In this document: positions 1 through 60,469 of the stretch, piece after piece
Layout of the letters: each line of letters begins with the position of its first letter
Numbering within the stretch: position 1 is the stretch's first letter
DNA from: Desulfobacteraceae bacterium
Lineage (GTDB): Bacteria > Desulfobacterota > Desulfobacteria > Desulfobacterales > SpSt-501
Assembly: GCA_041310935.1 (NCBI GenBank)
Contig: JBFYWS010000621.1
Span: forward strand, 1 to 60,469
Direction of reading: 5' to 3'
DNA: 60,469 nucleotides
Program-made: the position numbers and the translations under genes
The notes under the pieces: generated by a model
Database searches by the model: none
Seen by the model: the letters and a program-made list of their open reading frames with translations, nothing else
What the model was told of the DNA's origin: nothing

Positions 1-121
1 CACGGCGCGGACCTGGCCGTTGCGGGAGCGGTGGAAGCGGGGTGCGGGGATCGGGTCTGCAACGCGCAGTTCTTCGGTTGCTGTGTAGATGTACTCAATG
101 GCGGAATGCTGCATGAAATAC
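1..121. repeat. Terminal direct overlap: nt 1-121 are identical to nt 60349-60469 (circular-assembly signature)
   Basis: Read directly at both ends (cacggcgcggacctggccgttgcggg...gcggaatgctgcatgaaatac). The overlap lies inside an open reading frame. Confidence 0.95.
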
Positions 122-3100
122 GCCGGAAGTCCGTCGTAGACACCTCGATGGTAGCTGACAGCCCAATCCTTGCGAAGTCGTAGACCGCCACGCTCGGCCC
201 CGGTGTCGTAACCAGCACCTTGCGAAAACTCGCGGATGTCGTCTGAATTGACGTTTTTGAAGAATGTATCTGCGCTGACTTCCTCGGAAGAATCAAGCAT
301 CGCGTGGATTCGTTCCGCATCGGACCCGACGCAACTTGTCGCGTACTGGTAGCCTCCATCTCGCCTGACTTTCGCATCAATGTCTGCCCACGTTCTATGG
401 GATGTGGGATACTTGTCGGTTGGGTTCCATGACTGTCGAACCCTCGCCGCCTGCCCGTCGCCGCTCTCCACCGCGGCCTTGACCAACTCGTCGGCGTCGT
501 CGAACCGGCCGCCCCATGTGCCCTCAGCCGCGAACGGCACGGCGCGGGTCTCGTCGGACAGCGTGGCGTCGAACGCCTCGCGGGTTACGCCGCGGGGCTG
601 GGAACCGAGAAGGTCTGACGTGGAGAACTGCACGTTCTGCCTGAAACTCAGGTCTCGCACAGCCCTCGCTCTGTCGTCCGCCTTGTCGGGGTCGTACTTC
701 TCGACCTCGATCCCGTGCCGCTTGAGAATGGCGAACGTCTGCGGACTGGCATCGCTGGGCACCACGGCGCCCGTGAACTCCTGCAACTGAACGACGCGCT
801 GCGGCTTGGCCTCGAAGTATTCCGTCGGCATCGCCTTCAACTCGTCCGTGAACTGCCGAATCTCTTCCCAAGGCATCTGGTCGTAGTCGAAGCCGTATTC
901 CTTCAGCTTGGCTCGTGGCGTGCGGGAGCGCATGGCGTCGATGACGGCGTTCCAGAATGTTTCGCTGTATCCGAATGATTCGGAATTGTTCTCATAGGCG
1001 GACCTGCCACTGTTGGCGATCTCTTGCAGTCTCGCGTTTGCGCCCTGCTTGTCCTCGTCCATCCCAGATTTCAGTTTGCCGCGGTCGGACTGAATCTGCG
1101 CCAGCGTCCGGTACTGCCGGCTACCGATGGCGGCCCGCACGCTCCCGGCCCCGTAGAAAAACCCCTCGCCTTCCTTGGATCGGATGGCCTTGCGCAGTTC
1201 CTTCATCACGTAGTCGAGCGTGTAGGGGGCATACCGCTTGTTCCCGGCGTTCGTGAACCCCTTGAAAATCTTGCGCTCGACGAACGGGCCGAATGTGGCG
1301 TCCACCCAGGACTCGAACTCGGACTTGTGCTCGGCGATGAACGACCGCAGGGCCTCGCGCCCATCAACCTCGTCGGTGTTGCGAAAGACTTGCCCGTACC
1401 GCGTACCGGCGAAGTAGGCGCCCAACCCCAGGTCACGGTACAGGTCTTCAATGCCATGGTCCCTGAACTGTCCCGCCGCCTCAAGATGGCTATGCAGCCC
1501 GTAGAGCACGCTGCGGATGTGGTAGTCTTCCTTGTTGAGCGAGTCGCTTCGCATGTCGCCGTAGGTGGCCTGCACCCATGCCTCAATCGGCTTCCACACG
1601 GCATCAGCGCCCTTCGTCATCAGGTGAGTCGCGGATGGGTAGCGCGGGCTATACTGATCGGCGTTCGCCACGCGCATGCTGCGGTCAACCTTGGGGTCCA
1701 CCAGCTCCGGGCGTCCGATGAGCGTGATTTCACCAAAGCCTTCGTAGGGCGCTTCCGCGTTCGCCACCCCGAGGGAAGGCATGGCGAGCCCGCCCATCTC
1801 TTCGGCGAACGCAAGGTTCTTCGCTGACAGGTTGTGCATGGCGACCAGCGGAGGATTCGCTTCAGTCTCCCCCCGTGCCGCCAGCTTCCTCGGCATCACC
1901 ACGCCCTTAGCGGTCCCGTCATCGTTCGCAACCGTGATGGGCGAAAGCTCGTCCGTCAGGCCGATCTCAACCGTCTCTGAGTCCCCGGCTTTCAGAGTGT
2001 CCATCAGGTAGTCGGGGTTGAACGCGGCGGTCAGCGTATCGCCCCCGAACGCGACCTTCTCCGCGACGGGGACGGTGCGCTCCATCGTGTACTGCGGGCG
2101 ATTGCCGCTGGTCTTGACGACGATTTCCTTGCTGGATACGTCGAGATGAACGGACTCGTTTTTTCCGTACTCCGGATCGCCAGCGACGTAGGGCCTCACG
2201 TCGGCGAGTGCCTGGCCCAGCGCCTTGCGGCTGACGCGCAGCTTTATCTTCTGGCCGGCGGGGTCGGGGATGACCTGGCGGAAGTTGGGGTAGGTGCCCT
2301 CGATCAGTTTGGTGCGCAGCGTGATGTTGCCGTCGGTGATCTCGGCTATGTCGTTGCGAACCTTGATTTCATTGCCGTTGCCATCAACTTCCTTCGCCGT
2401 CGTCGTTCCCACTCTCACCGTCACTGGTCCCGCCCCGTTGCTCTGAAGCAGCAGATTTACGGCCTGCGGGCGCAGGATCATCTGCACGGACTCGCCGCCC
2501 TTGGGAGCCGCAACCGTCCCCGCTGTGGCAACGTGCAGCCGCCTTCCGTCCGTGCCGACGAGCGAGACTGCGCCGTCCTTGGCGACCTCCAACAACACGC
2601 TGTTCAACACGTAGCGGGACTGGTCCGTGCTCTGCGCCGCTTGAACGGCCAGCAGACCAGCCTTGAGCGCCTGGGCTTGGGCACCGCTGAACTTGAAGGT
2701 CTCCGTGGCCTTGCCGATGTTCATGGGGTCGGGGAACTCGTCGGGGGATTCCTCGGCCTCAACCCATGCGTTGCCGCGGGCTTCCCACAGACCATCGGCC
2801 TGCTCAGTGGGGGCGGATACCTCGTTCTCCAGGTCCGTTGTTCGGCCGATACCGCCCTTGGCGTGCATCCTGGTAAGAACCGGCAGGTTGCTGCCCTTCG
2901 GTGCGGCGGCCCGCAGAATGTCCTCGCCCTTGGCGGGCTTGCCCTTCAGTGTGTCGGGTTCCCACGCCTCAACAGCCTTCGGCGTCGTGTCGGGAGCCTT
3001 TGGCGTTTCCTCGATGGCGGACTCGAACATGGCGGCGCGGGCGGTCTTGTCCTCTGCACCTACGCCCTGCACCATGCCGAACGACAACCTGGCGCTGGTC

Positions 3101-6100
3101 CCCGCCTTGGCGGCGTCGGACAGGTATGGCATGAAGTAGGCATCGCGGGCAAGTCCGGTCTCCTGACGCGGCATGACGACCGACACCATGCCCTGCGCTT
3201 GGCGGCCGGCAGAGACTTCCACGTCCAGGGACTCGGAAAACGTCTTGCCGTTGCGGTCCTTGGTGGTCAGCGTCAGCGTGCCGTGCTCGCTGGAAATGCC
3301 CACCACAACGCCTTCACGCACCTTCCCGGCCATCTTCTTGAGCTTGGCGAGCGCCTTGTTGAACGCCTTGCGGTCCACCGTCAGCGTCTCGGCGGTCGCC
3401 TGCGATAGCAGCGGGGCGAAGTCCGGCTTGGCGACATCGGGCAACCTGGCCGTGACGGTCGTGTTGCCATTGGAAAAGCGGACGGCGCCGGGTGTTGTGC
3501 CGGTCTCTTTGACTTCCGGCTGTCCCGCCTCGATGGTCAGGCTCTCGCCGTGCGGGTCGGCCAGTAGCGCGGTCACGGCGGAGGGATTCAGCCCCACGGC
3601 CCAGCCGTCGGGCACAGCAGAGACATCAGCGGATACCGTCGTGGAGACCAGCCGCCTGCCGTCGGATGCCGATACCGCTACTGCACCGTCGTTGACCTTG
3701 GACACCCACACGTTCATCAGGGCGTAGCGTGTTTCGTCGGAAGACGCCGCCGCCTGGGCCGCCTTAAGGGCCTGCATGAACTCTCGGCCATCGGCGAGCT
3801 TCACCGTGACGGGCTTCTCCAGCTTCGCAAAGCCATACGGGAACTCTTCCAGACCTTCCGGCCCCTGCTCGATGATGAGGACGTTTGACCCCGGCAGTCG
3901 GCGGTAGATTCCGTCCGGCAGGTCCACGGGGGCCTGCACCGTGGCGTCCAGGTCGGACGCGCTGGCGACACCATCCTTCACGGCGACCATTCCGAGGATC
4001 GGGAGCGTGTTCTTCGGGTTGGCGACCTTGCCCAGCGCCTCGACGGGGTGCGTTGCGCCCCGGAACGGCGGCTTCCACGCGGTAGCGAAGGCGCGGCCCT
4101 TGTCGGCTGTTGCGCGGGCCTCGGCGTCGAACTTGGCCTGCTCGGCGGCCTTGGCCTTGGCTTCCTTCTCGATCTTCTCGTCGGACGCCTTCTCCGCTGC
4201 TTCGGCCTCGGCGGTCAACCGGGGTATGTCGGCAATCAGGTCGTCGGCCTGCTTCGCGGTCGGCTCGCTGACTTCAGGGACGGGCAGTTCAGCGGCCTTG
4301 TAGGCATCGTGGATGCGGCGGCGGCGTTGCGCCATCATCTGCAACGACTGGTCCAGTCTCGCCGCTTCCCGCAGCCGTTCGATGGTCAGGGGTTTCCCCT
4401 CGCGGGCATCGAAGTCGGCATTCCGAGCGATGTTGGGTGCCAGCGCCTTGACTTCCTCGTCCGTGGCGTCCGGGTACAGTTCGCGGGCCATCGGCTCGGC
4501 GGCGACCTCGGCCTGGGCCTGGAGGGCGTCGGCTGCATCCGTGGTCATCAAGCCGCTCTTGGCGTCACGCTGGGGGCCAAGGATAGCCGCCCGTGCCATG
4601 AGCCTTGAGACTTCCGGGGCCTTCTCGTCGCGGGCGACCGTGGCGTAGCGGGCGCGTTCAAGTTGACGCTTGGCGGGCTGCTCGACCTCGCGCAAGTGGT
4701 TCTCGAAGACGGCCTCGGCCTCTCGCGCCAGTTTGACGAGCCGCTGGTACTCCGTGACCTTGGCCTTGGGGGCGGACTTCTTGATTCGCCCTGATGGGTC
4801 AACGTAGCGGTTCATGCCGACAAATCGTCCGCGTTTCGTAGCCAGCAGGTCGTTTTCCTTGGCGTAGGTAGCGGCTTCGATGCCAGCCTTCTCCATCGCC
4901 ATTCGGAGTGTGGCTGTAACCGTGTCGGCTTCTGTCATGGCCTTCCGCGCCTCCTCGACGCTCGGGATGTCGGAGGGGATGGCGGGGGTCGCCACGGGGG
5001 CGCCCGGCTTCGGCTTGCTGGCTTCGGGCGTGGCCCCGCGGAAAGCGTGCTCGACGGCATCCTTGATGGCGGCGTCACGGCTCGGATAGTTCTGGTACAG
5101 CATCTTCCGCGTCTTGCGGTCGGGCGACGTGTACTCCAGTCCGAACGTGCCGTCGCCTTCGTCGGTGAGCTTGTAGGCCGCGTCGTTCTCCAACTGGTCG
5201 GCTCCGTACTTCGCCATGTTGCGGGCGAACTTCTGCTCAGGAGACCCCTCTGCGGACTTGGCAGCCACCTTCGCCTTCAGGGCTTCCAGCTTGGTCGCCT
5301 TCGGGGCCTCGGCCTTTAGGACTGTCCGTAACTGCTCTGTCAGCAATCCTTCTCGTTCGGTCAGCTTTGCAATTCTGGACTGCTTCTTGTCGTAATCGGC
5401 TGGAGCAGTTCTGGAAGAGTTCAACTCTTCGCGTTGACGGCGCACAGACGCCAAGCGTTCCCGTATCTCGGCTTCGGTAGTGAGTTTCGCATCCGCTACT
5501 GGAACGGGAGACTTTGTGGTCGGCGCCGGGGCCTCGGCGGTGGGGGCTTCCGGCTTCACCCAGTAGTCGTACTGGCTTTGAATCCGGTCGGCGGGCATCT
5601 TCGCCAACTCAGCGGAGAACTCAGCGCGTTTGCGGGCGACGGCCCTGTCAATGTCGGCTTTCAGCGCATCTTCAGTGGGGAAACGCTCGCCGACGGTTGT
5701 ACCCTCTCGGGCCATCATGCGGACCCAGTAGTCACCACGCGGCACAGGAACAAAGCGGGCGCGGTCTTGTGCATCCGCAGCGTCAAGAATGGCCGCGATC
5801 TTCGCTTCCCGCTCGGCGTCCACGGCCTCGACGCCTTTATTGCCCTCGCCCACACGGTCGAACTCGCCCTTGCCGATCAACTCGGCGTCGGGGGAGGCCC
5901 ACTTCACGTCCTTGTCATTCTCTACCTCAACAAGCCACGCTTCCGTAGTTCCGTCTTTGGCGGTCCCTGTTTCCAAGTAGGCGAGGCGTCCGTACACTCG
6001 GATACCTCCAACCTTCGTCTTGGAATATCCGGTGACGTGGTAAACGTCCCGCGTGTCGCCTTCCTTGTTCTCGATGGTGCCCAGTACCGGGTTGTCCTGA

Positions 6101-9100
6101 GAGATGTCGGCCTCGTCCAGCGCCCCGCTCATCCCATCGGGCATGTTGTCGGCGGCAAACTCGACAACCTGTTTCTCGGCGGTGAGTCCCTTGTCCTTGT
6201 CCTGGGCAACGAAGATTTGGCCGCGGGCCTCGTAGTTGGCCTCGATCTCGGCCTGCATTTCCTCGTACCGGCCCACGGCCTTGGCAATGCCGTCCTCGTC
6301 CTGCATGTCGGCAACGGCGTCCCCGATCTTCTCGCCTTCTACGATCATGCGGGTCATGTCCAGCCAAGTCTCGTGGTTCATGCCCTCGGCGTACCGGGCC
6401 AGCGTCTCGAAGGCGTCGTCGCCGTACTTCTGGCGCAGGCGCGTCTCGCGGGAGTTCAGGCGGCCTTGCAGGGCCACGGTCTCGGGGGTGATGGCGGAGC
6501 CGGTCGGGGTCTGGCGGGCGGCGGGGGCAGGTGGCGGGGGGGGCAGGGGGAATGGAGTCGGAACTGTGCCTTCGTCTGGTCTTGGCATCCAATCCTTGCC
6601 TCGATACGCCAGGCGTACAGCGTTGGGAATGTCCTCGCCACGATTTACCGCCCCACGCATCGCCTGTTCATGCGATATGCGCAGTGCCCGTTCATCGGAA
6701 GCCGTTGTCCGTTGTCCATTACGTTCCCGAACGGCCTTCATAGTTTGGACATACTCATGTGGTGTCTGCGCCCATTCTGGCAGTGCTGGCGCCGGGGCCT
6801 CTTCAGCAGGGGCGGCTGGTGCGGCGGCAGCAGGCTCCTTTGCCGCCATGACCGTCTTGAGCGGGTACTTGTCACTGACGTTCTCGCCCTTGGAATTGAC
6901 TACCCGCACAGATTTGTACGGGCCGCTGCCTTTGAGTGTTCCCGCGTCCTGAGCACGCACCTTAGCCGTCTTCCCGTCCTTGGTCTTGGCCTCGATCCAT
7001 AGGTCAGGCAGGCCCCGCCTTGACGGGGGTGGCTTCAGCAGGCCACGGTGAGCCGCTTCGGCCAAGGTTATCGAAACCGCCTTAGCCGTGGCCGATGGTG
7101 TTTGGGGGGCCTCTGGGGGGGACTGTGGCGCTCTAGGAATGGCCGGAGGCGGGGGGGGAGCTACTCTGATACCCCCCGGAGCGCCATTGGGCGGGGTTCT
7201 CGCATCTCTCTGCCCGGCCTCGTAGGCGGCGCGTTCTTCGTAGGAAATGGACATCCCGCCTTCGTGCATCGGGGTGCCCTTGCCAGACTTTCCGGCGTTG
7301 TAGAGTTCTCTGAACCACGGTTCTGCTGATTGGAGTTGGTCATGGCTCAGGTTCCCGCGTGGGCTTGTCATGTCGGACAGCCATTTCTTCCACACCTTCT
7401 TCCCTTCTTTGCCTACCCCGGATAGCTTATACTCTGTCTCTGCCTTCCGGTTGGCTTCATGGCGTGCCTTTTCGCGTTCGTTGTGGGCAGTCATCTCGTC
7501 GAGATAACCAGGAGAACCGGGTCCTGTAGGAGTAACAACGGGAGTCACAGCCGCCTGCCCCTCGCCGCCCGACGCTGGCGGGGGCGTAGCAGGGGCGGTC
7601 TCCGCTTCCGCCCCGCGCCCTTTCGTCTGTCGATAATGGTCTCTCCGCAGGTTGATTGTGGCCAAGTCCCATTCAAGACTTGCGATGGTCTTCTTCAACT
7701 CGGCTTGGTCATCCGCCCATGCCGGATCATCTCCTATCGCCTCAAGTTCATCCTGAGCCCTTTTGAGTGCCGGATACAGTTCCTTGGAACGACGGGTCAC
7801 GTAAGCATCGGCAGATTCGCCTGGAAGAACGCGAGATGCATCGCCCGGCGCTGGCCCCTCGCCGCCATCTTCGCCTCTCTCCCCAAGTCTTTGCTGCAAC
7901 TCCTTCTCGATCTGCGCCAGTTCGTCCTGCTCGGCTTGCGTCAGGTTGAGTGCTCCAGCCGCTTCCGGGCCTTTTTCCGCAGCCGGGACTTCCACGGGCT
8001 TGCTACCGGCTTCTCCCCCACCCGCACCGGCAGCTTCCGCAGATGGGGCGTTGCCGCCAGGAACTCCCGGTACACCTTGGGGTGCTTGTGTTTCAGATAC
8101 GCCGCCTGAGCCAACGACCGGAGCGGTGCCATGTTCGGCCTCCTTGGGTTGAGTAAGTGCAGGCCCCGCGACCGCGCCTGCTTCCGTAGTCGAGGGGGGT
8201 TCCCTCGTAGGCTCAGCGGCCTTCGTTGGTTTGGTTGGCGCGGGTGTTGGAGCCTGCAAATCTGGTGCCGCGATCAGGCCACGCCGGACGCGGGCGGGTA
8301 ACTGGGCGGCTTCTTTGAAGTAGCGGTCCCTAACCGCGGGACTCGCTCGGTCAAGGTTCACGTTCTCAGACCGGGCTATGATCTTCGCTACCTGCTCGAC
8401 TTCGTAGCGGAGTTGCGCGGTGGTGGGCGGGGCGGCGCGTTGCTCCTCGATGCTTGGGCCTTCCTCTGGGATCGAGGCTTTGAGAGCACGTTTCGGCTTC
8501 GCCTTGGCTATATCTGCAACTGGCTTCTGCCTCCTGACAAGAAACTGCCGTCCATCGGGCAGCGTCTCAACCTGAACTCCGTGCCCTGCCAAATACGCGA
8601 CATCTTCGGATGAGATGATACGGTTTGGCGGAAGCGGCAAACCGGGTCCTGACAACCCTTCGTGGAGTTCTGGCCTGATCTCGTCAGCCGTCTTCGTTTC
8701 CGTCTCTATCGCCTTGCGCACGACGGCATCAGCCGTCATTCTGGCGGCAGCGGTCGCCGCTCCCGGCGCTTGCAGTATGAGCATTGGCCCAATGGATTGG
8801 ACGCCAGCCTCAACAACATCCATGGCGCTGTACTTCATTTCTTCTGGCAGGTTGGAGGCATTGATCTGCCCGTCGATGTACTTTGCGGTAAGGCGCGTCG
8901 TTTCCTGAACCGCCTCTTGCAGCACTTCCTCGCCGACCTCTTGCCCCGTCCGTAGTAAAACCATGCCGCCGAGCCTGAGAAGGCTTCGCAAGAAAGTCTG
9001 TTTTGCCACGTCCTTCGCTCTGCGCCCAAGGCCGGGGATGATCTTATCAACCTGCGAGTACTCGATCAGCGCATACGGCAGTCCGGCGTAAGGCGCGAGC

Positions 9101-10005
9101 TTGGCGGCAGTATCGTGCGACACGCCCGAATTACGCATGGCGCGGTATATGGCGCCCGTGCCCTGGCGGAACCAATACGTTGCGCTGCCCACCGTCATCC
9201 CCATCGAGGCCGCTACGGGAACGGTAATCACTTCCTCCGGCAGCAACACCTGCGGGCCAGCCTGTCCGGCCGCTGCGGCAATGCCGGCAAACCCCATACC
9301 ATACAGGGCACCTTCCTTCTTGCCTCTGAGCATCGCCGGGGCCATGCGTACTGCTCCCAGGATGGAGTTCCAAATCCAGTTCTTGCTCTCTTGCGGAGGG
9401 GCAAGTTCAGCCTTGGACCGCAACTTGTCAGCCTTGTCGGGCGGTATCAATCCAGTTGCAGCCTGAAAATCGAGTTCGTCGAGTGCCGCCTGCTGATCGC
9501 CTTGTTGATAGGCTTGCGCCAATTCTTGTATCCAAGGCGGCCGATCATCTGGCGGCTTTGGTGGTTCAGTTTGGGTGGTTGAGGCGGGCGTTGGAGCAAT
9601 GCTAAACGACGGAACCACGTTAGTCTTTTGCGGCATGACGAACGATGCGGGGCCGACTTCGCCAACCGTCTTGCGTGCCGCCTTTGCCGCCTGCTCCCGC
9701 TGCTGAATGACGGGCGTAATGAGCGCCGCCGGCTGACTGACTCCCACGGACTGCGGAGTCGTGGGGGCGGATACATCCACGCTTCTCAGGGCTGCGCTTG
9801 GTGTTGGGACAACAGGCGGAGGCTTGGGCGTCATCTGCAACTCGGCATCGCTGAGCTGACGGACTGGCTCAACAGCCGGGGCCGATTCAACTGCCGGCGA
9901 TTCATCTGCTTCGAGAAGGTAGTCGAACCTTCCGGTCCGCTTGGGACGCTCAGAGGTTGCGGCAGGCGCAGCCTCAGTATCCAGGAGATAACTAAACCTG
10001 CCCAT
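1..10005 (-). CDS. N-terminal 3,335 codons of a giant ORF of about 4,893 aa (candidate polyvalent virion/ejected protein). It leaves the left edge and continues at 60348 through the circular junction.
   Basis: ATG at 10005-10003, with GAGG 9 nt upstream and an in-frame stop at 10021-10023. I read every plus-strand triplet starting at 1, 4, 7... from 1 to 10020 and found no tta, cta or tca. The frame (coordinate mod 3 = 1) matches ORF 55672..60462. The track omits it because no stop lies on this side of the window. Confidence 0.9.
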   Translation of the reverse strand, partial: MGRFSYLLDTEAAPAATSERPKRTGRFDYLLEADESPAVESAPAVEPVRQLSDAELQMTPKPPPVVPTPSAALRSVDVSAPTTPQSVGVSQPAALITPVIQQREQAAKAARKTVGEVGPASFVMPQKTNVVPSFSIAPTPASTTQTEPPKPPDDRPPWIQELAQAYQQGDQQAALDELDFQAATGLIPPDKADKLRSKAELAPPQESKNWIWNSILGAVRMAPAMLRGKKEGALYGMGFAGIAAAAGQAGPQVLLPEEVITVPVAASMGMTVGSATYWFRQGTGAIYRAMRNSGVSHDTAAKLAPYAGLPYALIEYSQVDKIIPGLGRRAKDVAKQTFLRSLLRLGGMVLLRTGQEVGEEVLQEAVQETTRLTAKYIDGQINASNLPEEMKYSAMDVVEAGVQSIGPMLILQAPGAATAAARMTADAVVRKAIETETKTADEIRPELHEGLSGPGLPLPPNRIISSEDVAYLAGHGVQVETLPDGRQFLVRRQKPVADIAKAKPKRALKASIPEEGPSIEEQRAAPPTTAQLRYEVEQVAKIIARSENVNLDRASPAVRDRYFKEAAQLPARVRRGLIAAPDLQAPTPAPTKPTKAAEPTREPPSTTEAGAVAGPALTQPKEAEHGTAPVVGSGGVSETQAPQGVPGVPGGNAPSAEAAGAGGGEAGSKPVEVPAAEKGPEAAGALNLTQAEQDELAQIEKELQQRLGERGEDGGEGPAPGDASRVLPGESADAYVTRRSKELYPALKRAQDELEAIGDDPAWADDQAELKKTIASLEWDLATINLRRDHYRQTKGRGAEAETAPATPPPASGGEGQAAVTPVVTPTGPGSPGYLDEMTAHNEREKARHEANRKAETEYKLSGVGKEGKKVWKKWLSDMTSPRGNLSHDQLQSAEPWFRELYNAGKSGKGTPMHEGGMSISYEERAAYEAGQRDARTPPNGAPGGIRVAPPPPPAIPRAPQSPPEAPQTPSATAKAVSITLAEAAHRGLLKPPPSRRGLPDLWIEAKTKDGKTAKVRAQDAGTLKGSGPYKSVRVVNSKGENVSDKYPLKTVMAAKEPAAAAPAAPAEEAPAPALPEWAQTPHEYVQTMKAVRERNGQRTTASDERALRISHEQAMRGAVNRGEDIPNAVRLAYRGKDWMPRPDEGTVPTPFPLPPPPPAPAARQTPTGSAITPETVALQGRLNSRETRLRQKYGDDAFETLARYAEGMNHETWLDMTRMIVEGEKIGDAVADMQDEDGIAKAVGRYEEMQAEIEANYEARGQIFVAQDKDKGLTAEKQVVEFAADNMPDGMSGALDEADISQDNPVLGTIENKEGDTRDVYHVTGYSKTKVGGIRVYGRLAYLETGTAKDGTTEAWLVEVENDKDVKWASPDAELIGKGEFDRVGEGNKGVEAVDAEREAKIAAILDAADAQDRARFVPVPRGDYWVRMMAREGTTVGERFPTEDALKADIDRAVARKRAEFSAELAKMPADRIQSQYDYWVKPEAPTAEAPAPTTKSPVPVADAKLTTEAEIRERLASVRRQREELNSSRTAPADYDKKQSRIAKLTEREGLLTEQLRTVLKAEAPKATKLEALKAKVAAKSAEGSPEQKFARNMAKYGADQLENDAAYKLTDEGDGTFGLEYTSPDRKTRKMLYQNYPSRDAAIKDAVEHAFRGATPEASKPKPGAPVATPAIPSDIPSVEEARKAMTEADTVTATLRMAMEKAGIEAATYAKENDLLATKRGRFVGMNRYVDPSGRIKKSAPKAKVTEYQRLVKLAREAEAVFENHLREVEQPAKRQLERARYATVARDEKAPEVSRLMARAAILGPQRDAKSGLMTTDAADALQAQAEVAAEPMARELYPDATDEEVKALAPNIARNADFDAREGKPLTIERLREAARLDQSLQMMAQRRRRIHDAYKAAELPVPEVSEPTAKQADDLIADIPRLTAEAEAAEKASDEKIEKEAKAKAAEQAKFDAEARATADKGRAFATAWKPPFRGATHPVEALGKVANPKNTLPILGMVAVKDGVASASDLDATVQAPVDLPDGIYRRLPGSNVLIIEQGPEGLEEFPYGFAKLEKPVTVKLADGREFMQALKAAQAAASSDETRYALMNVWVSKVNDGAVAVSASDGRRLVSTTVSADVSAVPDGWAVGLNPSAVTALLADPHGESLTIEAGQPEVKETGTTPGAVRFSNGNTTVTARLPDVAKPDFAPLLSQATAETLTVDRKAFNKALAKLKKMAGKVREGVVVGISSEHGTLTLTTKDRNGKTFSESLDVEVSAGRQAQGMVSVVMPRQETGLARDAYFMPYLSDAAKAGTSARLSFGMVQGVGAEDKTARAAMFESAIEETPKAPDTTPKAVEAWEPDTLKGKPAKGEDILRAAAPKGSNLPVLTRMHAKGGIGRTTDLENEVSAPTEQADGLWEARGNAWVEAEESPDEFPDPMNIGKATETFKFSGAQAQALKAGLLAVQAAQSTDQSRYVLNSVLLEVAKDGAVSLVGTDGRRLHVATAGTVAAPKGGESVQMILRPQAVNLLLQSNGAGPVTVRVGTTTAKEVDGNGNEIKVRNDIAEITDGNITLRTKLIEGTYPNFRQVIPDPAGQKIKLRVSRKALGQALADVRPYVAGDPEYGKNESVHLDVSSKEIVVKTSGNRPQYTMERTVPVAEKVAFGGDTLTAAFNPDYLMDTLKAGDSETVEIGLTDELSPITVANDDGTAKGVVMPRKLAARGETEANPPLVAMHNLSAKNLAFAEEMGGLAMPSLGVANAEAPYEGFGEITLIGRPELVDPKVDRSMRVANADQYSPRYPSATHLMTKGADAVWKPIEAWVQATYGDMRSDSLNKEDYHIRSVLYGLHSHLEAAGQFRDHGIEDLYRDLGLGAYFAGTRYGQVFRNTDEVDGREALRSFIAEHKSEFESWVDATFGPFVERKIFKGFTNAGNKRYAPYTLDYVMKELRKAIRSKEGEGFFYGAGSVRAAIGSRQYRTLAQIQSDRGKLKSGMDEDKQGANARLQEIANSGRSAYENNSESFGYSETFWNAVIDAMRSRTPRAKLKEYGFDYDQMPWEEIRQFTDELKAMPTEYFEAKPQRVVQLQEFTGAVVPSDASPQTFAILKRHGIEVEKYDPDKADDRARAVRDLSFRQNVQFSTSDLLGSQPRGVTREAFDATLSDETRAVPFAAEGTWGGRFDDADELVKAAVESGDGQAARVRQSWNPTDKYPTSHRTWADIDAKVRRDGGYQYATSCVGSDAERIHAMLDSSEEVSADTFFKNVNSDDIREFSQGAGYDTGAERGGLRLRKDWAVSYHRGVYDGLPAYFMQHSAIEYIYTATEELRVADPIPAPRFHRSRNGQVRAV
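1300..1860 (-). other. Conserved module inside the giant ORF (PPLVAMHNLSAKNLAFAEEMGGLAMPSLGV...GFGEITLIGRPELVDP), of a kind recurrent in large phage/plasmid polyvalent proteins. I cannot recall the family name.
   Basis: Hand translation of lines 1681-1860 and recollection of the HN(L/I)S...GG(L)xxPS(I/L)(A/G)(V/I) pattern in polyvalent proteins. The extent is approximate. Confidence 0.3.
1882..2925 (-). other. DnaN (beta sliding clamp)-like module B of the giant ORF (about residues 2361-2708)
   Basis: Hand-translated motifs: SNLPVLTRMHAKGGIGRTTDLENEV, DEFPDP, STDQSRYVLNSVLLEVAKDGAVSLVGTDGRRLHVA, RTKLIEGTYPNFRQVIP, AAFNPDYLMDTLK, GVVMPRKL. They match the DnaN hallmarks TLPIL, ATDGHRLA, (I/V)(D/E)GxYPxYxxV(I/L)P, FNxxYLxDxL and MPxR(L/I). 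Confidence 0.75.
3079..4053 (-). other. DnaN (beta sliding clamp)-like module A of the giant ORF (about residues 1985-2309)
   Basis: Hand-translated motifs: HPVEALGKVANPKNTLPILGMVAVKDGVASASDLDATVQ, EEFPYG, SSDETRYALMNVWVSKVNDGAVAVSASDGRRLVS, and a third domain (LTVDRKAFNKALAKL...GTLTLTTKD...YFMPYLSDAAK...ARLSF). The domain order matches a three-domain DnaN, but it is more diverged than module B. Confidence 0.65.
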
Positions 10006-11688: not shown

Positions 11689-11695
11689 AGCGCAC

Positions 11696-12100
11696 CTACC
11701 TTTCGTTTCTCTTGATCGGGCCGCACACGGCCCCACACCTTACCGCCAGTTCAATCCCGATGTCGCTGCTCATCAGCCATGTCCAGAGCAACCCGCCGTC
11801 GCGCTGAATGCAAAAGCGGTGCCTGCCATCGAAAAACTGCATCACGATCTCGCCGCCTGCCTCCACAAAGTACACTCGCGGCATTTCGATGTTCCGGCCA
11901 GCCTGCACGGCATCGCAAATCCGCTGCCTGACGCCGGGCCGCGCCTCCTGCTCGCGTTCGATGTAGCCGTCCCACCGTCTGAACGCAAGGTCGCAAGCCG
12001 TCACGCTCGCGGGCCACACCAGCCGCGCCGCAAAACGGCTTGGCCCCGCCACGGATAGAACACGCAGTTGTTCCGCTATTGTCATGTCGTCAGAACGCAT
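11696..12100 (-). CDS. Hypothetical protein (134 aa). The FFDGRHRF motif faintly resembles the ParB/Srx-fold DGxHR motif.
   Basis: ORF track; packed between neighbours. An alternative ATG lies at 12085. Confidence 0.5.
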   Translation of the reverse strand: MRSDDMTIAEQLRVLSVAGPSRFAARLVWPASVTACDLAFRRWDGYIEREQEARPGVRQRICDAVQAGRNIEMPRVYFVEAGGEIVMQFFDGRHRFCIQRDGGLLWTWLMSSDIGIELAVRCGAVCGPIKRNER

Positions 12101-32762: not shown

Positions 32763-33592
32763 AGATCACTCCTTCACTGGGCAGCGCGTACCCTCTTGTT
32801 GGGGCTACAGAACAGGCCGCACCTATCCTGCGCCAGTTTCGCGTACTCCGGGTTCAACTCGACCAGGATGCAGTCCCGTCCGTTGCTGGCGGCTACCTCG
32901 CCGGTTGTGCCACTGCCGCCGAAGGGGTCAAGGACTGTGCCCGGCTTCGTCGCGCCGTTGCAGGAGCAGGTCGGGCGGTGGCCGATAGTGCGGGACGTGT
33001 CAGCATCGAGGGCGCGCCATCCGGGTTGGTGCGACGACCTACCTCGAGGCGTGCATGTGTGCCCTATTGCCAGCCGTGATGGGTTGATCGTTTTCGCCCG
33101 CCCGCCAGGTTCCTTCTCCGTGACCCGTTCCCACGGCTTCCCGCACACCGCGCAGACCTTCGACGGGCATCCTGCCAGGATGCAGGGCCGGATCAGGGCA
33201 GGCGGAAATGTGGCGAAGTGGGCCTCGCGGTAGGGTGCGGTCGGGACCGTCCAGACGGAGCGGCGGTTGCGGGTAGCGTATGTCGCGCTTCCGGGGCGAA
33301 TCCCCGCCACATCTCCCGTAGGCATTCTCTTCTGTTCGGGAGCCGACCTTGCCTTTCTGTCGTCGTCCGGGTACACGCTCGGCTCAGAAATAGCCTCCGC
33401 GTCGTAGTAGTACCGCGCCGACTTCGACAGCAAGAACAGGTACTCATGGGACTTGGTGCATCGGTCGGTAACGGACTCCGGCATCGGGTTCGGTTTGGCC
33501 CAGATGATGTCCTGCCGCAGATACCAGCCGTCGGCCTGCAACGCAAACGCCACGCGCCAGGGGATGCCTACCAGGTCTTTGGGTTTGAGGTG

Positions 33593-33621
33593 TTGACTCC
33601 ATCCGGCGTCCGTGGTACATT
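33593..33621 (+). promoter_or_regulatory. Sigma70-like promoter of the HNH cassette (TTGACT, 17 nt, TACATT)
   Basis: TTGACT at 33593-33598, TACATT at 33616-33621, AGGAGG at 33637-33642, ATG at 33649. Confidence 0.5.
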
Positions 33622-33648
33622 CTGGATGAACTATACAGGAGGTGTCCG

Positions 33649-37338: not shown

Positions 37339-37366
37339 CGCCCTTTGCCCTTCATGTTGTGCCCGC

Positions 37367-55671: not shown

Positions 55672-58600
55672 CTACGGCCTTGGCCGCCAGTTCTCGTTGC
55701 GGCGCTTGAACTGCTGCCATGCCGTGCGCTGCTCAGGGGTGAGTTGTGCGCTGAACGAGACGCCAAACACGTTGCGCTGTTCGCGCTCGTCGTAGGCTCG
55801 GCCCGTTGTCGCTGACTTCGTGGCGACGAGGCCCTGCCGCTGGGCGTCCTCGTAAGTTGACTTGAAGGCTTCGTTGATGTCGTAGCCGCTCGCACCTGGG
55901 GGGATCGTGCTGACGGACCTCTCGATCATCTCCACCTTCGGAGTGAAGCCGCGGGCACGGCGAGGCTCGATCACGCCGGCAGTCGTCAGCCCCAACTCGC
56001 CAGCCTTCATTACCTGCCCTGCCGGCAACCCTGTGGACGCCGACAGCAAAATGTCCGCCGCACGGCTGGCCTGCTCGTATACACGCCGGGCGTCGACATC
56101 ATCCTTGTTCAGTTCGTTGGCCGCGCCCATTGTGCCTTCCCATGCCGCCCGCACCATGCCGGAGACTAGGGAGCGATCCTCAAACCGCCCACGTTCGGCC
56201 CATGTCGTTATCATTTCCAGCACTCGGCCCGCCACCGGGAAGATGCCCTGCACAAGTTCCGTAGCCCCGCGTATCGCCGTTCGGTTCTCCTTGATCCGGC
56301 GGGATACTTTGGCACTGAATGAACGCACGCGCTCGTCCTCTTCGCCCTCCGGTTCGTCGGGCTTTGCCTTCTTCTTCTTCGACAGAGCCTCCAGAACGGT
56401 TGAGAGAGTGACAAGCGAGGTCACTGTCGAGAGGATGGCGTTGAGCACCGAGGACCACAGATCGGCGGCTGCCGCTTTTGTCTCGCTGCGCACGTCGCCC
56501 TCACGGCCGCGCATGGCCCTGGCGAGGCGCATGGCGGCAAAGCGCAGCCGTGCCGCGAGGATGGTCTGCTGGCCCATCACCGGGAACACCGTCCGAAGCC
56601 ACAGACTTTGTTTCATGCCGGCATACTCAACAGTCGCTTCGCCCTCGGTCGAGGGGTTCTGAGTGTCGGCTATCCCGTCAGCCACGATGGCCGTTGCCTC
56701 CCGCTTCGACAGCCCGGCATCCCGCAGCATGACGTAGAGGATCGCGCTGTTGTCGCGCTCGCCCCGGATAGCCGACTGCTGCATGAGCCACTCCGCAGTC
56801 TGGGTTGTGGTCGTCCTGAGCCGCGCCAGGGCCAAGGTGATCTCATGCTTCGTCTTGCCCGATGAGCGTACAAGCGGCAGGTTCGTCTGCGTCTCGATAG
56901 CCTCCAAGTCCCAGCGCCGGAAGAAGTAACCGTCCTCCATCAGATCGGCAAGCGCCTGGGCGTACTTCGTAGACTGGAGGTTGACGGGCAGGAGGCTACG
57001 GGCTGCAAACTTCGCAGCATACTGAGGATGGTTTCGTACCAGCCACGCCCACACGCTCGAACCGCCACCGAACTTGTTGAGAGCGTACTGCCGCAGCGGG
57101 TTGCCGGCCACGCGGGACATGATGTAACTCGACGCCATCTTGGAGATCGTGCTTTCCTCGGGGACCGTCTTCTGTGACCGCTCCAAGCCAGCGAGGCCCT
57201 GAACCCTCTGCTTCATTTCGGCCACGGGGCGCGTACCGTACTTCCGGGCCACAGCATCGGAGAAATCGGTGTTCTGGGCCATGGCGATCCAGTCGCGCTG
57301 AAGCTCGGCCATCTTCGCAAACCGCCCCATGCGCTCAACGTGATCCATGAACGTCTGGTAGGCGTCCTGAGCGACGACGGGATTGCCGTGCTCCGTCACA
57401 GGTTTCAGTTCCCCTATCTGATCGAGCATGGCCGCCCTGACGCCCATCGCGCCGCCTGTCACGTCCATCACGTCCACCAGCGGCTTGTTCTTGCGGAATA
57501 CCGAAACGTGCCAGTAGTTCGGGCGGTCAGCCACGTCGCGGCCAAAGACTTCCCGCGCCATGTGGTTGATGTCCGGCACCAGTTCATGTACTTGGTCACG
57601 CATGAACCGCCCGAAAGCCTGGTCCTCTGGGGAGAGTTGCGAGAACAGCGTCCGGTACATAGCGGCGGTATTGTCGCGGAGTTCCTCAGAATCGCCTTCC
57701 CCTTTGGGCGTGTAGGCTCGGCGGTCGTCGTAGTTATAGAAGCCACCTTGCCCCTTCAGCATGACCTCCGCGCCGTGCGGGTCCTGATACTGGAGCCAGA
57801 GTCCAAGCAGTTGCATGTCCGTCAGCCATACCTGGCGGCCATCTCCCAAGTCCCGCGGCTTGCGGAGCCGCTGTTTCTCCAGCATATCGAAACTGTGCTG
57901 CTTGATGTAGTTGCGGACGGCCGCTATGCGCGGTACAGCCAAGGTTTCCCCGTCCCGACTCGCCTGGTTCACCTTCCGCGTAAGGTCGGCCAGCACGGAG
58001 TTGCGGCTACCACCTATCTTTTCGGCCAGTTGCGGAAGGGTCATCGCCCGGTCTACCAGGTGACGCTTCAGAAGCCCGCGCTCGGTATGCGCCCCATCGA
58101 GTTCCTCAACCGGCGAGTTCTGCACCTGCTCTGCGGCCAACTGCCCCAAGCCGGAACGCCTTACCTTCTGGCCGTATTCCAGCATCTTCTTCATCCGGCC
58201 GCTTTCATGCAGCACGGCCAGGAAGTCATTGTAGAGGTCGAGGATTTCCGATGCGCTCATATTGCGGATGTCGGGCAGGGTGATCCCATTCCGCACGGTG
58301 GCCTTGGTAGCCGGCAGGGAGTCCCTGACAGCCGCAAAGGCCGCCTGGAAGTTGTTGCCGTGGTTGTCCTGGTAGAGCGCCTTTACCCGCTTCTCTGGCA
58401 GCGCGTAGAGGCGCTGGAGCCGCTTGCCGATGTATGTCCTCACCTGCTGCTGCGCCCGCTCCCTGATAGCGTCCAGCGTGGCATGGGTGTCTCCGCGAAG
58501 AAACCGGGCGACGGCCCTGCGACGGGTTTCCCCGAACATGCCATTGAGCTGCTCACGGATGAAGTCAGGCCGGTCCGCTTCGGGCAGGGCCGCAGCAGCC

Positions 58601-60348
58601 GTTGTCATGGACTCCAGGTAGCGGTGCTGGTCCCCCAGCCAGCGCATGTACGTTCTCTGGCCGCCAGCGCCCTGAGATCGCTCGTAAACCGCCTTGAAGC
58701 TGGCGTCTATGGCGTCGGGCAGAGCGGCGTAGAACTCGCGTTTCCCGCGCTTCTCGGCACCGAGGGCCTCGGCGGCGCTCGTCAGGCCGGCCAGCGTCTT
58801 GGCGGGGCCTTTCGGGGGCTTGTAGCCAAGGTCGGCGCGAGCCTTTTCACGGGCGGTTTGCACCTTGGCGGCAGCGGCGACGATCTTGGCCTTGCGCTTG
58901 GCCTCGGCCCTCTCGATCAGCTTCTTGGCACGGCGGCTGCCGGCCTCGACGGTCTTCTCGGCCTTGGCAGCGGCCTGCTCCTGGGCAAGCGTCTGTCCGA
59001 TTCGCTGGAAGCCGGAAGCGGCCTCTTCCCGCGTCATGCCCATGATCTGCCTGAGCATGGCGTCAATCTCCTCGCGGGGTATCGGCTCAGGGCTAATGCG
59101 GGCAAACCGTATATCCGCCTTGCCCGCGTCGCCCCACTCGGACGGCGGCGGGATGCGGCCCGTGGAGTCGGGGGTCACTTCGGCGGATTTGATCTGGGAG
59201 GGGTCGAGCACAAATAGGTATCTGGTTTTGTCACCGCCGCGTTCTCTGGTGAATGCTCCGTCAAACCCAGCCCGCTTTAACAGTTCTCTGTTTTCCTCTT
59301 GGAGATAGGGATATTTCGCTCGTGCGATGTCTTCCGAAAGCCATTCGACATACTCCTCGCCGCCTTCTGGCAAGCCGAACTGTTTCCTTTGTTCCGCAGT
59401 CTCGCTGCTCTCAGAAGCTATTATGCGAGCAAGCCGCAACCTGTGATCCTTCCGGTCCATGTCGAAGATGTCTTGCGCCCGTGCATACAGACGCATAACC
59501 AACAGTTCGTCTGCTCGTTTTTGACCTGCATTGACGTATCTGTTAAGGAAACTTCTCGCTCCAGCTTCGGTATAGGCGAGCGAAATACCCTTAGTCGTCT
59601 TCGCTGACGATCCAACTTGAGCCTCGTGTGATAGGTCGTATTTAGTCCAATCTGCGAAGGTCGCATGCCACACCGGCCCGACGTTGTACCCCTGCGCCTT
59701 CAGCACGTCCGCCCGCATCTTCTCAAGCTCGGCGTACTCGTCGGTCTTCTTGAACTCGTCCCACGCGGCCTTGATGTCGGCTTCGCTGGTCTTGCCCTGC
59801 GCCCTGAGTGCTTCCATGCGGGAGTCCCATGCGGGCGTCAGCTCGCGGAAGCGGGCGTCATCGGCAGGGGTGGAGGGGGATGGCTTTCCCTTGGCGTAGG
59901 CGGGCAACCGTTCCCCGACTGGCCCCCTGCCCCGATCCATGGCCATCGCCCTACGCTTGGCGTCCAAGATGCGGCGCAAGAAGGCTCGAACCTCGGCGTC
60001 GGACACCGCCAGCTTGGCCCCCAGCCGCCGCATGAGGGCCTTGAACGTCGCCACCAGGGCGTCGAGGAACCGGCGCCAGAGCGGGGCGTTGTGCTCTCCG
60101 TCGCGGGCTGCCTTCGCCGCGAGTTCATGGAAAAACTCCAAGGAACCCGGCTTTACCCCATAGTTGTGCTCGATCTCGTCGCGGATGGCATTCCACTTGC
60201 CGCGGTAGGTCAGCAGGCCCAGGAGTCGCACATCGGCGGCCCCGAACTGGTTGACGACACGGTGGTAGGCTTCCTCGCGGATGTCGCCCCGGAGCTGGCT
60301 CAGGTTGTCGTAGCGGTCGAGGAAGAAGTAGCTGCGCTGGCCGATGGT
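55672..60348 (-). CDS. C-terminal 1,558 codons (plus stop) of the giant ORF of about 4,893 aa
   Basis: Track ORF 55672..60462 starts at an internal Met. The same frame stays open upstream through 60349-60469 (= nt 1-121) and on to the ATG at 10005. Confidence 0.9.
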   Translation of the reverse strand, partial: TIGQRSYFFLDRYDNLSQLRGDIREEAYHRVVNQFGAADVRLLGLLTYRGKWNAIRDEIEHNYGVKPGSLEFFHELAAKAARDGEHNAPLWRRFLDALVATFKALMRRLGAKLAVSDAEVRAFLRRILDAKRRAMAMDRGRGPVGERLPAYAKGKPSPSTPADDARFRELTPAWDSRMEALRAQGKTSEADIKAAWDEFKKTDEYAELEKMRADVLKAQGYNVGPVWHATFADWTKYDLSHEAQVGSSAKTTKGISLAYTEAGARSFLNRYVNAGQKRADELLVMRLYARAQDIFDMDRKDHRLRLARIIASESSETAEQRKQFGLPEGGEEYVEWLSEDIARAKYPYLQEENRELLKRAGFDGAFTRERGGDKTRYLFVLDPSQIKSAEVTPDSTGRIPPPSEWGDAGKADIRFARISPEPIPREEIDAMLRQIMGMTREEAASGFQRIGQTLAQEQAAAKAEKTVEAGSRRAKKLIERAEAKRKAKIVAAAAKVQTAREKARADLGYKPPKGPAKTLAGLTSAAEALGAEKRGKREFYAALPDAIDASFKAVYERSQGAGGQRTYMRWLGDQHRYLESMTTAAAALPEADRPDFIREQLNGMFGETRRRAVARFLRGDTHATLDAIRERAQQQVRTYIGKRLQRLYALPEKRVKALYQDNHGNNFQAAFAAVRDSLPATKATVRNGITLPDIRNMSASEILDLYNDFLAVLHESGRMKKMLEYGQKVRRSGLGQLAAEQVQNSPVEELDGAHTERGLLKRHLVDRAMTLPQLAEKIGGSRNSVLADLTRKVNQASRDGETLAVPRIAAVRNYIKQHSFDMLEKQRLRKPRDLGDGRQVWLTDMQLLGLWLQYQDPHGAEVMLKGQGGFYNYDDRRAYTPKGEGDSEELRDNTAAMYRTLFSQLSPEDQAFGRFMRDQVHELVPDINHMAREVFGRDVADRPNYWHVSVFRKNKPLVDVMDVTGGAMGVRAAMLDQIGELKPVTEHGNPVVAQDAYQTFMDHVERMGRFAKMAELQRDWIAMAQNTDFSDAVARKYGTRPVAEMKQRVQGLAGLERSQKTVPEESTISKMASSYIMSRVAGNPLRQYALNKFGGGSSVWAWLVRNHPQYAAKFAARSLLPVNLQSTKYAQALADLMEDGYFFRRWDLEAIETQTNLPLVRSSGKTKHEITLALARLRTTTTQTAEWLMQQSAIRGERDNSAILYVMLRDAGLSKREATAIVADGIADTQNPSTEGEATVEYAGMKQSLWLRTVFPVMGQQTILAARLRFAAMRLARAMRGREGDVRSETKAAAADLWSSVLNAILSTVTSLVTLSTVLEALSKKKKAKPDEPEGEEDERVRSFSAKVSRRIKENRTAIRGATELVQGIFPVAGRVLEMITTWAERGRFEDRSLVSGMVRAAWEGTMGAANELNKDDVDARRVYEQASRAADILLSASTGLPAGQVMKAGELGLTTAGVIEPRRARGFTPKVEMIERSVSTIPPGASGYDINEAFKSTYEDAQRQGLVATKSATTGRAYDEREQRNVFGVSFSAQLTPEQRTAWQQFKRRNENWRPRP
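59098..59691 (-). other. ART-PolyVal-like (ADP-ribosyltransferase of polyvalent proteins) module in the giant ORF, possibly catalytically altered
   Basis: GPVWHATF...KGISLAYTEAGARSF...LLKRAGFDGAF...RYLFVLDPSQIKSAE...ADIRFARIS resembles the remembered pattern YHGT...G.YFT...GYDGI...EYVVFDPxQIKSA...DIRFS. Here HGT is HAT, and the position I recall as the conserved Glu is Arg. Confidence 0.45.
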
Positions 60349-60469
60349 CACGGCGCGGACCTGGCCGTTGCGGGAGCGGTGGAAGCGGGGTGCGGGGATC
60401 GGGTCTGCAACGCGCAGTTCTTCGGTTGCTGTGTAGATGTACTCAATGGCGGAATGCTGCATGAAATAC
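60349..60469. repeat. Second copy of the 121-bp terminal overlap
   Basis: Identical to nt 1-121. Confidence 0.95.

Follow-up and report, generated by a model that had tools for sequence, protein, structure and literature searches.

Contig JBFYWS010000621.1 of assembly GCA_041310935.1, assigned to a Desulfobacteraceae bacterium, is a stretch of 60,469 nucleotides (nt) with 61.8% G+C, which as a whole we call the window. It raises the question of what is encoded in its first 10 kb. The open reading frames (ORFs) listed over that interval are found on the plus strand only. The minus strand, which carries the PHROG and Pfam matches and essentially all of the long ORFs that we take as genes, was represented by a 1,596-amino-acid (aa) ORF at the opposite end of the window (55672-60462) that starts at an internal Met. 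We find that this ORF is one piece of a far larger minus-strand gene that runs through both contig ends and encodes a protein of 4,893 aa, hereafter the giant protein. The explanation that we favour, and judge reasonably probable, is that a tailed phage of ~60.3 kb has here the gene for a single polyvalent protein of ~0.5 MDa, which is probably packaged in the virion and ejected.

The two ends of the contig belong together. Nucleotides 60349-60469 are an exact copy of nucleotides 1-121, and this is the sole terminal overlap in the 20-2,000 nt range tested. We dropped one copy of the repeat to obtain a circular form of 60,348 nt, which was then rotated. When the plus-strand triplets that begin at 1, 4, 7 and so on are read as far as 10021, a single reverse-complement stop is encountered, the TTA at 10021-10023. 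On the circle, a minus-strand frame of 4,898 codons is open from 10020 through 1/60348 down to 55672. Its first ATG is at 10005 and its TAG at 55674-55672, such that the giant ORF with its stop takes up 14,682 nt, a share of 24.3% in the 60,348-nt genome. The TAA at 10023-10021, which is in frame with the giant ORF, is the stop codon of an upstream gene for 571 aa. The giant gene had remained hidden because ORFs running off a sequence end go unlisted. An original prediction, made from the sequence alone, had proposed the giant ORF and had read the 1,596-aa ORF as its C-terminal piece, starting at an internal Met. Its arithmetic, frame continuity, ribosome-binding site and upstream stop all proved correct on recomputation. 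The rotation and renewed ORF calling that it recommended yielded the single 4,898-codon frame, whose full ORF starts at the ATG at 10005. The features of this gene and of the surrounding genome are collected in Table 1.

The composition of this frame is that of coding DNA from the same genome. No stop occurs in it, versus 141 and 122 stops in the two alternative frames of that strand, when ~140 would be expected from base composition (probability of no stop ~1e-62). G+C contents at the first, second and third codon positions (GC1/GC2/GC3) are 0.66/0.48/0.75 and resemble those of the genes for TerL, portal, major capsid protein and RecT. GC2 is lowest in every 300-codon block. From codon 1201 onwards, GC3 is at least as high as GC1 in every block except one, and over the first 1,200 codons, which are rich in linkers, GC3 is a little lower (0.57-0.67).

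Further evidence for continuity comes from relatives of the protein, which were recovered by an exhaustive profile search and then compared locally. The join falls between V3335 and T3336 of the giant protein, inside the motif F[HY]RSRNGQVRAVT[IM]G.RS.FFLDRY of a domain of ~150 aa. This motif is uninterrupted in five homologues, all from other assemblies (P0040, P0032, P0080, P0101 and P0055). The 5,478-aa protein P0040 aligns with aa 1564-3498 of the giant protein in one high-scoring segment pair across the join (60.7% identity, 2,187 bits), and the alignments of the other four likewise span it. A word-indexed search with aa 2801-3500 returned PBECR5-type proteins only (matching ~aa 2801-3030) and none across the join. 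Because relatives align across the join, the continuity of the giant ORF is confirmed at the level of protein homology.

Alternatively, the genome might be linear and the 121-nt repeat a direct repeat at its physical ends. The two parts of the ORF would then meet in concatemers alone, or else each would be a separate or a defective gene. Exact terminal repeats near this length exist in some phages, and the DNA pattern composed of left flank, repeat and right flank is absent from the viral and metagenome contigs searched, so that none of these contigs is a second assembly of this phage. We nevertheless regard a terminal repeat of this kind as very unlikely. Reading across the join preserves the frame, which is free of stops for 4,898 codons, the join interrupts a conserved motif, and the only start available to the C-terminal piece is the internal Met within the repeat. 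In addition, the orthologous genes encoding P0032 and P0040 are internal and intact on their own contigs. We thus consider it confirmed that both halves form one real coding gene, inside which the assembler probably linearised a circular genome.

Two observations concern the frames around this gene. The plus-strand ORFs antisense to it (window 1024-9582, the longest being 522 aa at 5434-7002) are the usual stop-poor frames of G+C-rich coding DNA, and the stop-poorest such frame has 37 stops in 14.7 kb. Separately, the upstream 571-aa gene (10021-11736, minus strand) shares the frame of the giant ORF, with a gap made up of the TAA and five codons. On L008, which encodes P0040, the 5,478-aa gene (4334) likewise shares its frame with the unrelated 589-aa gene before it (2561-4330), but on the P0032 contig the upstream gene is out of frame with the giant gene. 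The in-frame placement is probably a coincidence.

What kind of protein is encoded? Its C-terminal module of ~1,100 aa defines a large family. We built a family profile, A2, from three seeds (the giant protein, P0001 and P0002) and scored it against 1.84 billion representative proteins. Matches were obtained in at least 407 clusters (50% identity) at E<=1e-3, and 60 of these clusters match at E<=1e-30. In all 27 members checked the module lies at the far C-terminal end: in most, no more than a few tens of residues follow it, and the largest remainder is ~240. The match of the giant protein covers aa 3746-4893 of 4,893, which holds by construction because this protein is one of the three seeds, and the same placement recurs in 26 of 26 other members. 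Among 150 listed members, 40 are at least 3,000 aa long, seven are at least 4,893 aa long and the largest reaches 6,301 aa. Accordingly, the size that the original prediction had singled out is not exceptional for the family. Many other genes of this kind appear damaged in the databases. P0001 (2,160 aa) and P0002 (2,134 aa), the nearest relatives in word-indexed searches, begin at nt 2 and nt 20 of their contigs (L003 and L002, respectively) and are therefore N-terminally truncated, and the shorter family entries often begin at contig ends; assembly thus often breaks up the genes of this family.

Other collections yielded few relatives. In IMG/VR, the C-terminal half gave no match when it was searched as one protein, and the A2 profile gave one locus (L007). 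A complete IMG/VR relative of 2,248 aa has LPD23, ART-PolyVal and the C-terminal module in this order. An A2 profile search of genome contigs found nothing. Against 50,697 phage records, tblastn with the C-terminal 1,558 aa likewise found nothing, with the N-terminal part it gave weak clamp or PBECR-type matches only, and with two family members it gave two short, weak matches, one of them outside the module.

The family shares a striking avoidance of cysteine. The giant protein has one cysteine in 4,893 residues, compared with 179 in 11,427 (1.57%) for the other 35 phage ORFs (binomial P = 2e-32). Over the 150 listed members there are 132 cysteines in 308,543 residues (0.043%), and 97 of the 150 have none. 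Depletion of cysteine is typical of proteins that are exported unfolded via narrow channels or across the periplasm. A family defined by this C-terminal module and by cysteine avoidance seems to be undescribed.

The module has no Pfam model and gave no PDB match in the searches that we ran. Profile searches of the PDB with our alignments A3, A4 and A5 produced chance matches only. In an AlphaFold2 (AF2) model, the core of the module (aa 4225-4800) is entirely alpha-helical. Foldseek matches of this core to membrane transporters have E>=0.04 and TM scores (template modelling scores) <=0.24 and were rejected as meaningless. A hydrophobic helix occupies the same alignment position in all 18 family members compared, with a hydropathy peak of at least 1.5 in 14 of the 18. 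The helix of the giant protein (aa 4636-4657) is its only strongly hydrophobic segment, where several had been predicted. The Pro-rich linkers predicted along with them are real, and there are 11 such segments.

Upstream of the C-terminal module, the protein is a mosaic. DNA of L008 (7556-13044) is 72% identical to, and collinear with, window positions 523-5244 and 60158-60382. This corresponds to a cassette of ~5.8 kb that includes an unnamed domain X2, two beta-clamp modules, a PBECR5 domain and the ~150-aa junction domain that spans the join, with 61% protein identity to P0040. In comparison, the C-terminal modules of the giant protein and P0040 are only ~22% identical and the flanking genes have no BLASTP similarity, from which we conclude that the giant gene is a mosaic. 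These differences suggest that the cassette has been exchanged horizontally as a sub-gene module. The same differences might be produced by a chimeric mis-assembly that fused different giant genes, and the cutting of P0001 and P0002 at contig ends demonstrates that such genes are hard to assemble. We find this highly improbable: the order X1 (a further unnamed domain), X2, clamps, junction domain and C-terminal module is reproduced in P0032 and P0080, the codon-position pattern is kept along the ORF without a frame break, and polyvalent proteins have been described as mosaic (PMC5512222).

The N-terminal quarter is the most variable part. With the exception of one weak match, aa 1-1155 have no homologue among the family members examined, and seven of the 11 Pro-rich linkers lie there. 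The motif GRF[SD]YLL[DE] is duplicated at aa 2-10 and 25-33. As a side observation, short repeats are found at the N-terminus of two of these proteins, namely GRFSYLLD and GRFDYLLE in the giant protein (aa 2-33, window 9907-10002) and three copies of YPGTELV in P0040 (aa 15-50). They could be a targeting or docking peptide. X1 follows this region and is 33-35% identical in P0032 and P0080. X2, which in P0040, P0032 and P0080 always immediately precedes the clamps, has no Pfam or PDB match.

Three regions beyond the clamps bear on function. The first is a PBECR5 domain, a predicted RNase, with 57.1 bits against a cut-off of 25 (E 3e-15), continued by a phrog_22978-like stretch at aa 2878-3119. 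After an unnamed region comes the junction domain (alignment A4), which has 50 invariant columns in six sequences, including DRY, DIxEEAxHR, NYG, ExxHE and KAxRDG. It has no Pfam or PDB sequence match, and its many invariant polar residues suggest an enzyme. About six of the 150 listed family members have this domain, which is also encoded in contigs of metagenome-assembled genomes labelled Planctomycetaceae (L010, 65% identity) and Verrucomicrobia (L011, 50% identity, in a 2,587-aa ORF); these two labels are the sole taxonomic hints from relatives. The third is an ART-PolyVal-like region, after which a boundary motif, SAEVTPDSTGRIPPPSEWGDAG..DIRF.R, is nearly identical in P0001 and P0002. The original prediction of a polyvalent protein is borne out by the PBECR5 match, by the ART-PolyVal-like region and by relatives in which ART-PolyVal and LPD23 score above threshold.

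The remaining part of the cassette has the tandem clamps. Modules A and B are duplicates in tandem that share 28% identity over 356 aa (E 2e-24), and both are recognisably DnaN-like. For module B, PF02767 and PF02768 both score above their cut-offs and phrog_947 matches at 1e-47, and its AF2 model (predicted local distance difference test, pLDDT, 80-95) superposes on DnaN with a Foldseek E of ~1e-22 and TM scores of 0.69-0.74 over ~390 columns. The AF2 model of the tandem has a predicted TM score of 0.50, and module A was left without a confident model because the alignment covered module B only. In a phmmer search of the PDB, module A matches DnaN chains (5wce, E 3e-10, aa 2071-2263). TIGR00663 scores 116.9 bits summed over two stretches, which is below its equivalog cut-off of 137.65, and PF00712 (domain I) has no match in either module. 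The DnaN motifs TDGRRL, YPN, QVIP, FNPxYL and VVMPR are retained in module B, as are VVMPR and DGRRL in module A. DnaN itself is a free, homodimerising protein of ~370 aa, whereas here two diverged copies stand within one chain of 4,893 aa.

The nearest clamps in the databases are free proteins of 400-500 aa with 29-36% identity, and the genomic context of one is that of a cellular chromosome. Eleven standalone clamp relatives have 2-10 cysteines each, and the two modules have none. A motif scan found no canonical clamp-binding motifs in the giant protein. Among the 150 listed family members, clamps are present in P0040, P0032 and P0080, and precomputed Pfam matches for P0040 comprise clamp, PBECR5 and ART-PolyVal. 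We found no description of a tandem beta-clamp cassette in a polyvalent protein in the searchable literature, where the one publication that mentions polyvalent proteins, sliding clamps and phages jointly treats them separately. The cassette therefore appears to be undescribed. A separate clamp-like protein, P0007 (846 aa, L004 1331-3871), is cysteine-free, with a long N-terminal extension rich in Pro and Gly and an equally short domain I. It is encoded on a 5.2-kb contig next to a gene with a Vint domain and may be another polyvalent-type clamp carrier.

Polyvalent proteins are large multidomain proteins, often of more than 2,000 aa, of phages and conjugative elements that were proposed to be delivered together with DNA and to act early; their genes stand beside late or packaging genes in phages and beside T4SS genes in conjugative elements (Iyer et al. 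2017, PMC5512222). Membership of this class is the best reading of the giant protein that its domains and gene neighbourhood allow. It combines PBECR5 and an ART-PolyVal-like region, domains of the published polyvalent inventory, with two clamps and at least five unnamed conserved regions; its gene has late and packaging genes as neighbours; it is mosaic; and it has relatives with LPD23. It differs from the published proteins in its tandem clamps and in a ~1,100-aa C-terminal module that lacks a Pfam model. The word 'clamp' is absent from the description of the class by Iyer et al. and cysteine is unmentioned (PMC5512222).

Individual proteins of comparable scale offer analogies. The original prediction compared the giant protein with the N4 virion RNA polymerase (about 3,500 aa) and with P1 DarB (2,255 aa). 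The comparison stands as analogy and fails as homology. DarB forms part of the head of the P1 virion, and N4 virions contain the packaged N4 enzyme (PMC5512222). Like the N4 polymerase, the giant protein would be an early-acting, virion-carried giant encoded among late genes, and like DarB it would travel with DNA, so that the idea of protection in cis could apply if the clamps ride the incoming genome. However, DarB has a dyad of adenine methylase and superfamily 2 (SF2) helicase with LPD36 and no sequence relationship to the giant protein, in which Pfam, PHROG and motif scans found no methylase, helicase, LPD36 or Walker A. An RNA polymerase module was also not found (Pfam, PHROGs, NCBIfam and PDB sequence searches). 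We therefore rejected homology to either protein, since their defining domains are absent. Some N4-like proteins do have ART and PBECR domains (PMC5512222). A further protein of the same proposed class, the 2,198-aa putative polyvalent protein PTXU04_00025 of coliphage PTXU04, is required for infection, and its knock-down strongly lowers plating (PMC11879866); it shows that such proteins can be essential.

The gene order of the window provides further context. Along the minus strand, a probable early block starts with a promoter-like site and an RHH_3 gene, followed by endonuclease-like and exonuclease-like genes, an exonuclease, RecT, a DNA methyltransferase, a replication-initiation protein, DUF5131, a second methyltransferase and then TerL. 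The promoter-like site and the RHH gene, directly downstream of the giant gene, probably mark the start of the early or regulatory block, in a genome that is transcribed from one strand only. Between the major capsid protein gene and the giant gene there are two matches to 'virion structural protein' PHROGs and one to a tail-assembly chaperone. ORFs of 968, 161, 357 and 571 aa, without matches, follow the chaperone, and then comes the giant gene, which is the last of the late block. The original prediction had placed it at the end of the virion module after tail and fibre genes. It does end a head/tail-like block, and the tail or fibre identity of its immediate upstream neighbours is weakly supported, with PHROG matches as the evidence for tail functions. 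The P0032 contig (59,865 nt) has the same layout, with tail-like genes, a 5,194-aa gene, SLT, integrase, RecT, PDDEXK and methylase, which suggests a group of temperate phages of ~60 kb. No tRNAs or Rfam families were found in the window. Separate characteristics of this genome are its DUF5131 (Gp37/Gp68-like) gene and its pair of genes for DNA methyltransferases of 561 and 236 aa (phrog_67).

Table 1. Features of the giant gene and of the genome that carries it (positions in the 60,469-nt window)
Feature	Position	Strand	Remark
Giant ORF, N-terminal 3,335 codons (aa 1-3335)	1..10005	-	ATG 10005-10003; runs off left contig end
Giant ORF, C-terminal 1,558 codons (aa 3336-4893) + TAG	55672..60348	-	
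Terminal overlap copy	60349..60469	.	duplicate of nt 1-121; circular or terminally redundant assembly, no extra sequence
GAGG, Shine-Dalgarno-like site	10018-10015	-	nine nt before ATG
Variable N-terminal region, aa 1-1155	6541..10005	-	7/11 Pro-rich linkers
Moderately hydrophobic phrog_28077-like region, aa 164-323	9037-9516	-	
X1, unnamed conserved domain, aa 1156-1388	5842..6540	-	P0032, P0080, 33-35% identity
X2, unnamed domain, aa 1564-1974	4084..5316	-	directly upstream of clamps in P0040, P0032, P0080
Beta-clamp module A, aa 1975-2345	2971..4083	-	DnaN-like
Beta-clamp module B, aa 2346-2712	1870..2970	-	domains II + III canonical, domain I shortened
PBECR5 predicted RNase domain + continuation, aa 2715-3119	649..1863	-	Pfam match aa 2715-2814
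Unnamed region, aa 3120-3319	49..648	-	common to P0101, P0032, P0040; first ~70 residues conserved
Junction domain (~150 aa, alignment A4), first part, aa 3320-3335	1..48	-	continues at 60348
Junction domain, remainder, aa 3336-3475	59929..60348	-	
ART-PolyVal-like region, aa 3561-3725	59179..59673	-	
Boundary motif SAEVTPDSTGRIPPPSEWGDAGKADIRFAR, aa 3723-3752	59098..59187	-	nearly identical in P0001, P0002
C-terminal module, ~1,100 aa, about aa 3755-4893	55675..59091	-	defines family
Sole strongly hydrophobic helix, aa 4636-4657	56383..56448	-	then basic, then acidic (DDEE-like) cluster
Promoter-like site TTGACG-18-TATAGT, sigma-70-like	55564-55535	-	~110 nt past giant stop
55-aa RHH_3 (ribbon-helix-helix) gene	55528-55361	-	directly downstream of giant gene
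DNA methyltransferases / DUF5131 region	32774-34459, 38989-39699, 35992-37554	-	
TerL	32762-31239	-	
Portal	30958-28871	-	
Major capsid protein	25732-24812	-	
Tail-assembly-chaperone PHROG match	17408-16944	-	

The replication genes of this phage allow another interpretation, in which the giant protein is made late and remains unpackaged as a cytoplasmic scaffold for replication or recombination, its clamps recruiting host Pol III and repair enzymes to phage DNA. Neither a DNA polymerase nor a clamp loader was detected among the 39 ORFs scanned, where the replication-related matches are a replication initiator, RecT and exonucleases only. On this interpretation the phage must use the host replisome, and both DnaN-like modules do keep the motifs of the partner-binding pocket. 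We consider such a scaffold unlikely, given that the giant gene ends the head/tail-like block and stands outside the replication block. Moreover, the C-terminal module, cysteine depletion and giant size extend across the family, whereas only three of the 150 members listed have clamps, and the proteins from which PBECR5 and ART-PolyVal were described are believed to be delivered together with DNA (PMC5512222).

The same position in the late block, after tail-like genes, might indicate that the protein is mainly a structural part of the tail or ejection apparatus, such as a central fibre, a tape-measure-like protein or a trans-envelope conduit, with the enzyme-like domains as minor decorations. 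The all-helical C-terminal core with its conserved hydrophobic helix would agree with this, as would the conserved residues of the module, which are mostly G, P, N, R and W and point to structure, not catalysis. However, ~3,700 residues of variable, mosaic and enzyme-bearing modules would be unexpected in a purely structural protein, and the 968-aa ORF directly after the tail-assembly-chaperone-like gene is in the more usual position of a tape measure. We rejected a tape-measure identity for the giant protein on account of this better-placed candidate, and we find a mainly structural role quite unlikely. It does overlap in part with the explanation that we favour, in which the C-terminal module may be structural.

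How might a packaged and ejected polyvalent protein work? We infer packaging, ejection, catalysis by PBECR5 and the ART-like region, clamp function and the role of the C-terminal module from the features described above. The protein would consist of independently folding modules strung on Pro-rich linkers, with variable N-terminal cargo and a constant C-terminal module. It would be made late, packaged into the virion and released through the tail together with the DNA. By our own estimate, one chain of ~0.5 MDa would fill ~1% of the interior of a 60-kb capsid, and size alone is thus no argument against packaging. The C-terminal module and its conserved hydrophobic helix might serve as the packaging or ejection element, acting as a conduit or an anchor. 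A nearly cysteine-free chain with flexible linkers would fit a largely unfolded passage through a narrow channel and the periplasm, and cysteine avoidance, linkers and a helical C-terminal module together lend indirect support to translocation. Once in the host, the N-terminal modules would act early, with PBECR5 cleaving RNA and the ART-like domain modifying proteins. The tandem clamps might tether the protein to the incoming DNA for action in cis, as for DarB, or alternatively might bind host proteins that have clamp-binding motifs, such as Pol III and repair factors.

Several observations weigh against this explanation. The searches found no MPTase, MuF, portal fusion or zincin peptidase in the giant protein, and zincin-like MPTase, MuF or portal fusions are common in phage polyvalent proteins, the self-processing MPTase being pervasive though not universal (PMC5512222). 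HExxH, HxxEH and Walker A motifs are absent from its 4,893 aa, and there is no Pfam peptidase match. The ART-PolyVal match scores 16.1 bits, below the Pfam cut-off of 31.2, and the position of the strand-2 Tyr is ambiguous by eye; the homologous regions of P0001 (34.9 bits), P0002 (68.2 bits) and the L007 relative (68.1 bits) do pass the cut-off. The AF2 model of the C-terminal core has a mean pLDDT of 57.8 and no recognisable fold. No isolated phage in INPHARED has the C-terminal module, and no characterised relative was found. Domain I is ~45 residues short in both clamp modules, with one helix in the model of module B, such that a closed ring, or a canonical six-domain ring, should not be assumed. 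Finally, the clamps could equally point to a cytoplasmic role in replication.

A bolder version of the packaged and ejected protein deserves mention, although we regard it as doubtful. The phage might deliver a sliding clamp along with its genome, in which case the tandem modules would be a single-chain, pseudo-dimeric clamp within a virion-carried giant protein. Such a clamp could encircle the incoming DNA and hold the RNase, the ART domain and other effectors in cis, or it could capture host proteins that dock in its pocket, such as Pol III alpha, Hda and MutL, and thereby hijack or paralyse the host replisome before phage expression. The succession of X1, X2, the two clamps and the junction domain would then be a mobile, exchangeable unit for early take-over of replication.

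These findings have both practical and biological implications. Because the contig ends fall within a single gene, gene callers missed a quarter of this genome; rotation of circular contigs before ORF calling recovers such genes. This missed gene and the truncation of P0001 and P0002 together indicate that giant polyvalent genes are systematically under-annotated in metagenomic phages; even larger members of the family are already present, without annotation, in public protein sets. A large family of giant, nearly cysteine-free phage proteins offers a concrete handle on how cargo proteins are constructed. The giant protein also reveals that a tandem beta-clamp cassette can form part of a polyvalent-type protein, which is an oddity that can be tested. 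If this protein is indeed ejected, it would represent a new way for a phage that lacks a polymerase to engage the host replisome at entry.

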